Shown one piece after another: positions 39,710 to 40,660 of a DNA stretch of 64,000 nt; within the stretch, counting starts at the first letter, position 1, and every line of letters starts with the position of its first letter. Source of the DNA: Octopus vulgaris (Eukaryota). Under the pieces are notes generated by a model. That model ran no database searches. It saw only the letters and a program-made list of their open reading frames with translations, and was not told the DNA's origin. The translations under genes were made by a program, and so were the position numbers. The stretch is taken from assembly GCA_951406725.2 (NCBI GenBank), contig OX597826.1:29574001-29638000 (forward strand). Reading direction: 5' to 3'.

Positions 39710-40660
39710 TATACATTCGAAGCTTTATATATATATATCGCTTATAGATATATATATATACATATCGGAGCAACATATATATATACTAAGATATATATAT
39801 GACTGATATATATATATATATATATATATATATATATCATGTTCTTGTCCATGTCTGTAATTATTTTTACTGTTTACCTATATAATCGGCGGCTACGTAT
39901 CCACAATTGTCCTTATACGATAAGTATATTTTTTCTCAAGCATTGATACGACTCTTAATCTTTCTTTCTCTCTCTCTCTCCTCCCTTATTCCCCCTCCTT
40001 TCTTTCCCTCTCCATCCGTTTCCCCCCCCCCTTCTACGTTTCTCTATCTCTCTCACCTCCAGCCCCCTCGATCTGTCTCTTTCTTCTCCTCCCTCGTCCA
40101 CCTTCTCTCTCTTTTCATCTGTCCCTTTCTCTTGTCTTTTGTTCTCACGTGACCGCTAGCCGCTGTTGAACGCTCTTTTCGTTCCAGCAGCCGTTGAAGC
40201 AACACGTACTTGTTCGTCTCCCTGTGGCCATTAGGCACAACTTCATAAGCCTAGCCCCATGCTCAATTCGTCCTGTCGAAAGACCCTTGTCCTACGTCCT
40301 GGTTTTGTTTTGTTGTTTATTCTTTATACTTTATTTTTACCGTTATTGTTTTTACGTTTTTTGTATTCTTATTGTTGTCACGTATTCTGTATTTTTGTTC
40401 GTGTACTTCGTTCGTTTTCCGTCCTCGTGTTGTATACATTCGAAGCTTTCTTCCAGGGGATCTAATGCACTTGGCTTAGATTTCCCGTGGCGGGCTAGCC
40501 ATATCGGAGCAATCTCAAGATTAATCAGCCGAAATTGCTAAGATGATCTGGTTCTTGACTGATGACTGAGGGCTTCGAATGTCCCGTCCTGTGGTTCTTG
40601 TGTCGTCTCTGTGGCGTTTCATGTTCTTGTCCATGTCTGTAATTATTTTTACTGTTTACC
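39710..40660 (+). mobile_element. Non-coding element with a terminal direct repeat (Penelope pLTR-like arrangement) between TA arrays
   Basis: CATGTTCTTGTCCATGTCTGTAATTATTTTTACTGTTTACCTATATA at ~39838-39884 and ~40620-40666; the upstream repeat (39710-39840) is garbled but keeps CATTCGAAGCTTT, CATATCGGAGCAA, CTAAGAT and TGACTGAT. Confidence 0.6.
40437..40581 (+). ncRNA. Candidate structured RNA containing a hammerhead-like core with permuted strand order
   Basis: Closing stem CATTCGAAGCTT / GGGCTTCGAATG; hairpin GGGGATCTAA / TTAGATTTCC; core AGCAA-UC^UCAAGA ... UCAG-CC-GAAA-UUGCU ... UCUUGA-CUGAUGA-CUGA. Confidence 0.55.

Follow-up and report, generated by a model that had tools for sequence, protein, structure and literature searches.

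The 64,000-nucleotide stretch of Octopus vulgaris DNA analyzed here (contig OX597826.1, positions 29,574,001 to 29,638,000; referred to below as the window) holds the core elements of a hammerhead ribozyme in the order cut site, GAAA, CUGAUGA, which corresponds to none of the circular permutations known as types I, II, and III in Rfam. This raises the question of whether an RNA with its strands in this order could fold and cleave as a hammerhead and, if so, what kind of element carries it. An earlier note on this DNA, made from the letters alone, had proposed a pseudoknotted hammerhead of undescribed topology that standard descriptor searches would miss.

A hammerhead core in noncircular order

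All of the letters and coordinates given in that note proved to be correct (AGCAA-UC^UCAAGA at 40508-20, UCAGCC-GAAA-UUGCU at 40525-39, and UCUUGA-CUGAUGA-CUGA at 40553-69), including those of a closing stem at 40437-50/40568-81. When both strands were scanned with a descriptor that required cut site, GAAA, and CUGANGA in S-G-C order, there was one match in the window and none in 3.4 Mb of dinucleotide shuffles, and the core pattern occurred 11,530 times in the genome versus 11 times for a reversed control; on these two counts, a chance origin of the motif was ruled out. Rfam gave no match at the gathering score and no ribozyme family up to E = 10, in support of the view that a hammerhead core in noncircular, pseudoknotted order had escaped standard descriptors. 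The order itself, however, is that of the type-SGC hammerheads treated in passages of Eckert et al. (2023; PMC10085705), so that, as far as the order is concerned, the topology had already been described.

Stem II pairs with an upstream strand

The alignment comprised 137 distinct full-length copies, obtained from 227 profile matches in 190 loci by dropping truncated matches. Their mean identity was 68%, and they fell into ten subfamilies of two or more copies plus one singleton. Across the ten subfamily majorities, the core letters C3, U4, G5, A6, G8, A9, G12, A13, A14, A15.1, and U16.1 were all invariant (11/11, against 38/136 other positions), while N7 was A, U, or G, a tolerance that the earlier note had expected, and H17 was C or A alone.

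Helices were enumerated without bias, and 16 proved compatible with 8 or more of the 10 subfamilies. Of these, the three with the most compensatory pairs were stem I, stem III, and a stem II whose 5′ strand lies upstream of the cut site. Stems I and III are the ones previously read from the window, and both are borne out by changes on both sides of their pairs. The stem II read there (CUGA/UCAG) was not conserved; over the 137 copies, it was paired in 207 of 542 cells, compared with 637 of 816 for the upstream pairing. Once UCAGCC is paired with the upstream GGCU(G)G at 40493-98, the two defects that had counted against the motif, a missing G10.1-C11.1 pair and two extra C residues before GAAA, both vanish.

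In an alignment of 28 sequences hand-picked to span the subfamilies, the revised six-helix fold was 90.7% paired, with double changes at 20 of its 37 pairs, and slid registers were 20 to 44% paired. Stems I, II, and III were 95.2, 89.3, and 98.6% paired, with double changes at 4, 3, and 4 pairs, respectively; the extension helix was weaker (83.5%). The fold was matched by 0 of 500 shuffles, a count that is not a probability because the subfamilies are few and related (five have 2 to 4 copies) and their relatedness inflates the comparison. In the largest divergent subfamily, stem II pairs only after a one-base register shift. A mutual-information scan, dominated by phylogeny, was uninformative. 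When a descriptor was run over 160 loci of the same genome, 133 matched, 121 of them with the upstream stem II and 117 with the kink-turn signature described below. Comparison of the copies shows that stems I and III and the upstream-paired stem II covary and that the core letters are conserved; a full set of stems that both abut the core and covary is obtained solely with the upstream stem II.

An ordinary type-SGC hammerhead, with CUGA/UCAG as stem II and a CC bulge before GAAA, would require no split core. Its 4 bp can form in the window copy and the nearest subfamilies, and type-SGC ribozymes themselves are proven to cleave in vitro (passages of PMC10085705). Against this fold, which we regard as highly improbable, its stem II was 52.7% paired in the 28-sequence alignment, with a number of double-changed pairs that 317 of 500 shuffles reached, and each of its pairs except one is broken in at least 5 of the 10 subfamily majorities. 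It also leaves no G10.1-C11.1 pair, an SGC-type downstream stem II is present in just 3 of the 133 descriptor matches, and its duplex energy is −2.0 kcal/mol, whereas the upstream stem II of the family reaches −8.3 kcal/mol.

A predicted core split between A9 and G10.1

In the upstream-paired fold (Table 1), stem I is formed by 40515-20/40553-58, stem III by 40509-13/40534-38, and stem II by 40493-97/40526-30. A9 falls at 40565 and G10.1 at 40493, and so the covalent step from A9 to G10.1 (0 to 2 nt) that is found in hammerheads is missing. In place of the intact block C of type SGC (CUGAUGA(U)G plus the stem II strand), the window has CUGAUGAC. The catalytic core is predicted to be broken at the A9/G10.1 step, with two extra helices acting as a clamp, and we infer four blocks that run from the stem II 5′ strand through the cut site and GAAA to CUGANGA. 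With the block that unites CUGANGA with stem II itself split, the corrected fold is more unusual than the one first proposed. From the two ends of the domain, A9 and G10.1 would be drawn together by P0, the closing helix, and the hairpin P1. At the P0/P1 junction, where P1 ends near G10.1, constrained folding was noisy, and the linker lengths are rough estimates.

Table 1. Features of the element and of the revised fold (window coordinates)
Feature	Position	Strand	Remarks
One monomer (782 bp) of a non-coding, head-to-tail tandem retroposon, retrozyme-like	39885..40666	+	46-bp terminal repeat 39840/40622
3′ end of preceding monomer, ending in internal TATATA tract	39839..39884	+	
Fixed 3′ end, a short (UA)3 tract that continues as the genomic (TA)n target	40661..40666	+	28/30 loci
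P0 5′ strand (closing helix)	40436..40450	+	pairs with 40568-40582; pairing probability 0.85-1.0; outer 6 bp 88.6% paired
P1 hairpin, conserved UAAUGC...GCUUA top	40453..40492	+	91.1% paired; base leads to G10.1
Stem II 5′ strand, G10.1 = 40493	40493..40498	+	3/5 pairs compensatory
Extension helix 5′ strand and kink-turn G-A (40507-08)	40499..40508	+	pairing from alignment
Stem III 3′ strand, U16.1 (40513), C17 (40514), stem I 5′ strand	40509..40520	+	predicted cut 40514/40515
NUAA linker between tips of stems I and II	40521..40524	+	U40522, A40524 invariant (subfamily majorities)
Stem II 3′ strand (C11.1 = 40530), G12-A15.1 (40531-34), stem III 5′ strand	40525..40538	+	from alignments
Kink-turn-signature 3-nt bulge (variable), invariant GA (40542-43), extension helix 3′ strand	40539..40551	+	
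Stem I 3′ strand and C3-A9 (CUGAUGA 40559-65)	40553..40565	+	core letters invariant; N7 A/U/G
P0 3′ strand	40568..40582	+	begins 0-2 nt past A9 (10/10 subfamilies)

What had been taken for a 13-nt linker is a kink-turn-signature bulge together with one strand of the extension helix. Here a 3-nt bulge is followed by tandem G.A and A.G pairs between two helices, as in the standard kink-turns Kt-7 and Kt-23 (passages of PMC2790904 and PMC5061560); the G.A and A.G pairs are present in 123 and 125 of 136 copies, respectively, while the bulge letters vary. In one young subfamily the bulge-distal pair is A.U, as it is in Kt-23 (passages of PMC2790904). The other marks of a kink-turn, a geometry kinked by about 50 degrees, A-minor contacts, and L7Ae binding, are predictions here. 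We found no kink-turn within a hammerhead in the literature. The kink-turn would, we infer, fold the extended stem III back toward the tips of stems I and II, as the very short linkers require, and the tips of stems I and II and the extension would meet in a second tight junction with linkers of ~4, 0 to 1, and 1 nt. The result would be a cage with a kink-turn, its three helices running from one junction to the other; this reading, taken jointly with activity, is in our judgment probably right.

The top of P1 (40463-40478) keeps its sequence across subfamilies beyond what pairing needs and might be a tertiary contact or a protein site. Twister was rejected as a candidate, since the UAAUGC of P1 resembles the starts of twister ribozymes but no other element of that class could be seen by eye.

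The nested minimum-free-energy fold of the window copy, computed with a program that cannot model pseudoknots, forms neither stem I nor stem II (probability about 0.05 and 0.00) and contains a rival helix, 40492-98/40548-54. RNAalifold returned only stem I, the top of P1, and a rival 4-bp hairpin, 40487-90/40499-502. The window copy also carries A40497, private to it (1/48 copies; the family letter is G), which places an A.C mismatch in stem II, and this copy may be weaker than the family.

The motif belongs to a high-copy tandem element

A search of the 2.8-Gb genome gave 2,505 candidate loci, the best 40 at 99 to 100% identity. Among 30 loci whose ends were inspected (three pairs of which overlap), the 3′ end was identical, …TTTACC followed by TA repeats, in 28, the other 2 ending at the edge of the locus; the 5′ ends were variable and the units head to tail. 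The (UA)3 tract at 40661..40666 is likely the priming site. Tandem loci have periods of 776 to 784, and three other subfamilies, with periods of 699 to 855 bp, likewise end at a short internal UA tract. Inverted pairs of the element also occur in the genome. Each unit is non-coding, with one ribozyme motif, and is pyrimidine-rich (68% U+C) and not strongly folded; as a circle, the monomer shows no unusual pairing (z = +0.28). ORFs adjoining the motif were rejected as the element's own, as 4 of the 19 scanned match families of LINE-type reverse transcriptase (RT) or endonuclease, and their sequences suggest unrelated elements that served as insertion targets.

Contigs of three of four sequencing runs, none on record as RNA, join 40626 back to 39845, a junction that is unusable as evidence of expression because tandem and circle, and RNA and DNA, look alike in it; no RNA data set was listed among those sharing the element's sequence. 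Four other organisms share 0.40 to 0.56 of its sequence words. None of the 120 viral pattern matches listed passed the descriptor, and a fixed-spacing pattern had one match in metagenomes and one in prokaryote genomes, neither of which had the helices by eye.

Upstream of the monomer, at 39694-39840, ribozyme fragments of 7 to 17 nt, in order and at offsets of 718 to 782, are interleaved with (TA)n. They are the ghost of a second tandem unit, probably an assembly or consensus artifact and possibly the result of microsatellite overwriting. In each subfamily (monomer junctions of loci L004, L102, and L062), the UA priming tract gives way to a GC-rich motif, GGCGGC/GCGGCG/GGCGCC, and small hairpins occur in the monomer at 40160-40195 and 40271-40283, one of them a GNRA-capped GUC-GAAA-GAC.

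Hundreds of genomic copies start at the predicted scissile bond

Homology stops were counted genome-wide for one subfamily group. Homology ended exactly at 40514/40515 in 376 copies and one base upstream in 65, and 4,302 copies read through, with ends scattered 14 to 855 nt upstream. Inspection of the first 30 of the 376 identified 23 true truncations and 7 point mutations, from which about 290 copies (6%) can be estimated to end at that one base, the cut site that had been predicted from the window. In a by-eye tally of 200 listed 5′ ends out of 520 truncated loci, 51 were at 40515, 4 at 40516, 14 at 40517, 12 at 40518-19, 26 at 40520, 5 at 40521, and 50 at 40522-25, and 38 were spread across all 21 upstream positions, 8 of those at 40511-14. 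The many truncations at AT-rich 40520 and 40522-25 imply that microhomology shapes the histogram; it clearly adds peaks downstream, but the step sits at the scissile bond. One copy (L386) starts at the cut, spans one full unit, and then has the normal end. The excess of copies starting at 40515 is likely a genomic trace of cleavage in vivo. With hundreds of copies that start at precisely this base, self-cleavage of the RNA in the cell is likely. At some insertion junctions (e.g., C2:29182817, C3:33787376, and C5:29960779), short pieces of the element's 5′ end are duplicated, which suggests repeated template jumps at the cut end.

Two other readings of these ends were weighed. The motif might be derived from a hammerhead but no longer catalytic, the 40515 ends coming from transcription start, a protein nuclease, or RT stalling; the break between A9 and G10.1 is without precedent in the passages on hammerhead insertions consulted here, and AT microhomology does make other truncation peaks. 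This is very unlikely, however, given that the stop falls exactly after NUH, that many 40515 junctions have no microhomology, and that, within the core, variation is confined to N7 and H17 and stays within the hammerhead rules. Stalling in particular is unlikely because an RT would have copied the 3′ strands of the helices before reaching 40515. Alternatively, the RNA might cleave only with help, which could come from dimerization, from another unit acting in trans, or from a kink-turn-binding protein of the L7Ae/15.5K type that folds it, the monomer alone being nearly inactive. Many Penelope-associated hammerheads are weak and are thought to act as dimers or to need factors (passages of PMC4209133), competing nested folds exist, and only about 6% of copies end at the cut. 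Every helix is nevertheless long enough in cis, P0 closes the domain locally, and a palindromic helix III is absent, and we consider a need for help to be very unlikely.

A proposed life cycle

It is likely, judging from the sequence evidence, that the motif is a self-cleaving hammerhead of new architecture that cuts after C40514 and processes the tandem RNA of a Penelope-dependent non-coding retroposon. Tandem copies would be transcribed and cut once per 780-nt unit. With P0, stems II and III, and the extension helix still clamping the cut ends, re-ligation or the formation of circles would be favored. Nicked (TA)n would serve as the primer for a Penelope-like RT/GIY-YIG protein provided in trans, and the short UA tract that the unit has about 150 nt downstream of the cut would be the priming site. 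The RT either would run off at the cut, producing short copies that start at 40515, or would read through, producing longer and tandem copies. Copies that share one 3′ end and differ in their 5′ ends, together with the tandem arrays, the (TA)n targets, and the inverted pairs, fit the anatomy of Penelope-like insertions, for which passages of PMC8557442 describe the same fixed-3′, variable-5′ tandem copies at (TA)n.

The genome contains young 781-amino-acid RT/GIY-YIG elements with a CxxC linker and (TA)n ends. No autonomous partner was found among 50 GIY-YIG loci (of 150 listed), none of which carries the motif or shares sequence with the element. The young 781-amino-acid Neptune-like Penelope-like elements (PLEs) have a minimal hammerhead-like motif in which UUGAUAA replaces CUGAUGA (C3U, G8A), located in the 3′ UTR about 100 nt before the TA tract (L142, L195, L200-L202, and L210).

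Relation to known hammerheads and retrozymes

Type-SGC hammerheads (HRIMA-1 and variants) and the octopus motif share the order of cut site, GAAA, and CUGANGA, a full core, a pseudoknotted structure, and a short linker between stems I and II. They differ in that the stem II strand of type SGC follows CUGAUGA by 0 to 1 nt (passages of PMC10085705), whereas that of the octopus motif is found some 70 nt upstream and precedes the cut site, and in that the octopus motif has the kink-turn extension and the P0/P1 clamp where type SGC has a stem I-II helix. According to the same passages, type SGC comes from metatranscriptomes only, with none in genomes of known organisms bar one weak GCS candidate, whereas the octopus motif is a high-copy animal genomic element; the SGC-1/2 oligonucleotides given there have no sequence likeness to it by eye. 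Read cyclically through P0, the octopus order becomes C-(stem II 5′)-S-G, in the same noncircular class as the type CSG of that paper, as far as its passages describe it, but opened inside block C (A9/G10.1) with two helices inserted.

In the passages of PMC10085705 on descriptors, CUGAnGA and its adjacent paired strands are assumed to be uninterruptible, with no known insertion above 1 to 2 nt, and stem II has to come directly after CUGAUGA(U)G; such a descriptor would miss a split-core motif. The minimal hammerheads of PLE pLTRs have one base at 9/10.1, where the octopus motif has a two-helix domain, and a single extra base is common there (passages of PMC4209133), which implies that the position tolerates insertion. 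Just short core insertions are listed in the relevant part of Perreault 2011, and "variants with additional helices" are mentioned in a passage of PMC13725137. We found no report of the split-core architecture or of this element in the literature, chiefly open access.

The element resembles the non-LTR retrozymes of animals, as portrayed in passages of PMC7229834 and bioRxiv 10.64898/2026.07.22.740005, in its non-coding tandem monomers with one hammerhead per unit, its GC content under 50%, its thousands of copies, and its co-occurrence with PLEs. Those retrozymes carry type I hammerheads, are mostly 150 to 450 nt long, and are highly self-paired (same passages). The octopus units, in contrast, are 700 to 855 nt long, target (TA)n, and carry a split-core motif of noncircular order in place of a type I hammerhead, and the monomer is not strongly paired as a circle, unlike the circRNAs described for retrozymes, whose monomers are expressed in linear and circular form. 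From the PLEs Neptune and Naiad, the element differs in having no ORF and no sequence in common with the 50 GIY-YIG loci.

The order itself is known as type SGC, and the new part would be the predicted break between A9 and G10.1. Sequence comparison makes it probable that this is an active, naturally split-core hammerhead whose topology of four blocks lies beyond the six permutations held to be possible, the first noncircularly permuted hammerhead seen in an animal genome, and the driver of a retrozyme family of >10,000 copies whose cut in vivo is recorded in genomic 5′ ends. If true, this would contradict an assumption stated for the ribozyme that has been studied best, namely that its stem II strand cannot be separated from CUGAnGA. 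Noncircular hammerheads, until now a matter of anonymous metatranscriptomes, would also gain a place in a mobile element that is very abundant in an animal. Since all descriptor and Rfam censuses would have missed split cores, retroelements said to "lack canonical hammerheads" are worth searching again; Naiads are among these, some with half cores (passages of PMC8557442). The four helices that would hold the cut ends suggest a testable route to circles and to more-than-unit-length reverse transcription in Penelope-type elements, and counts of 5′ truncations at a predicted scissile bond would offer a general way of reading ribozyme activity from genomes.

Other features of the window

Long ORFs at 8-3236 (−), 37546-39234 (−), and 43641-50400 (+) look like copies of LINE endonuclease/RT genes, and the one at 37546-39234 resembles the LINE protein of locus L083. 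Tandem 184-bp and 65- to 66-bp units occur at 23217-23693, 10381-10670, 53662-53861, and 63503-63635; we take these to resemble SINEs of octopus genomes.
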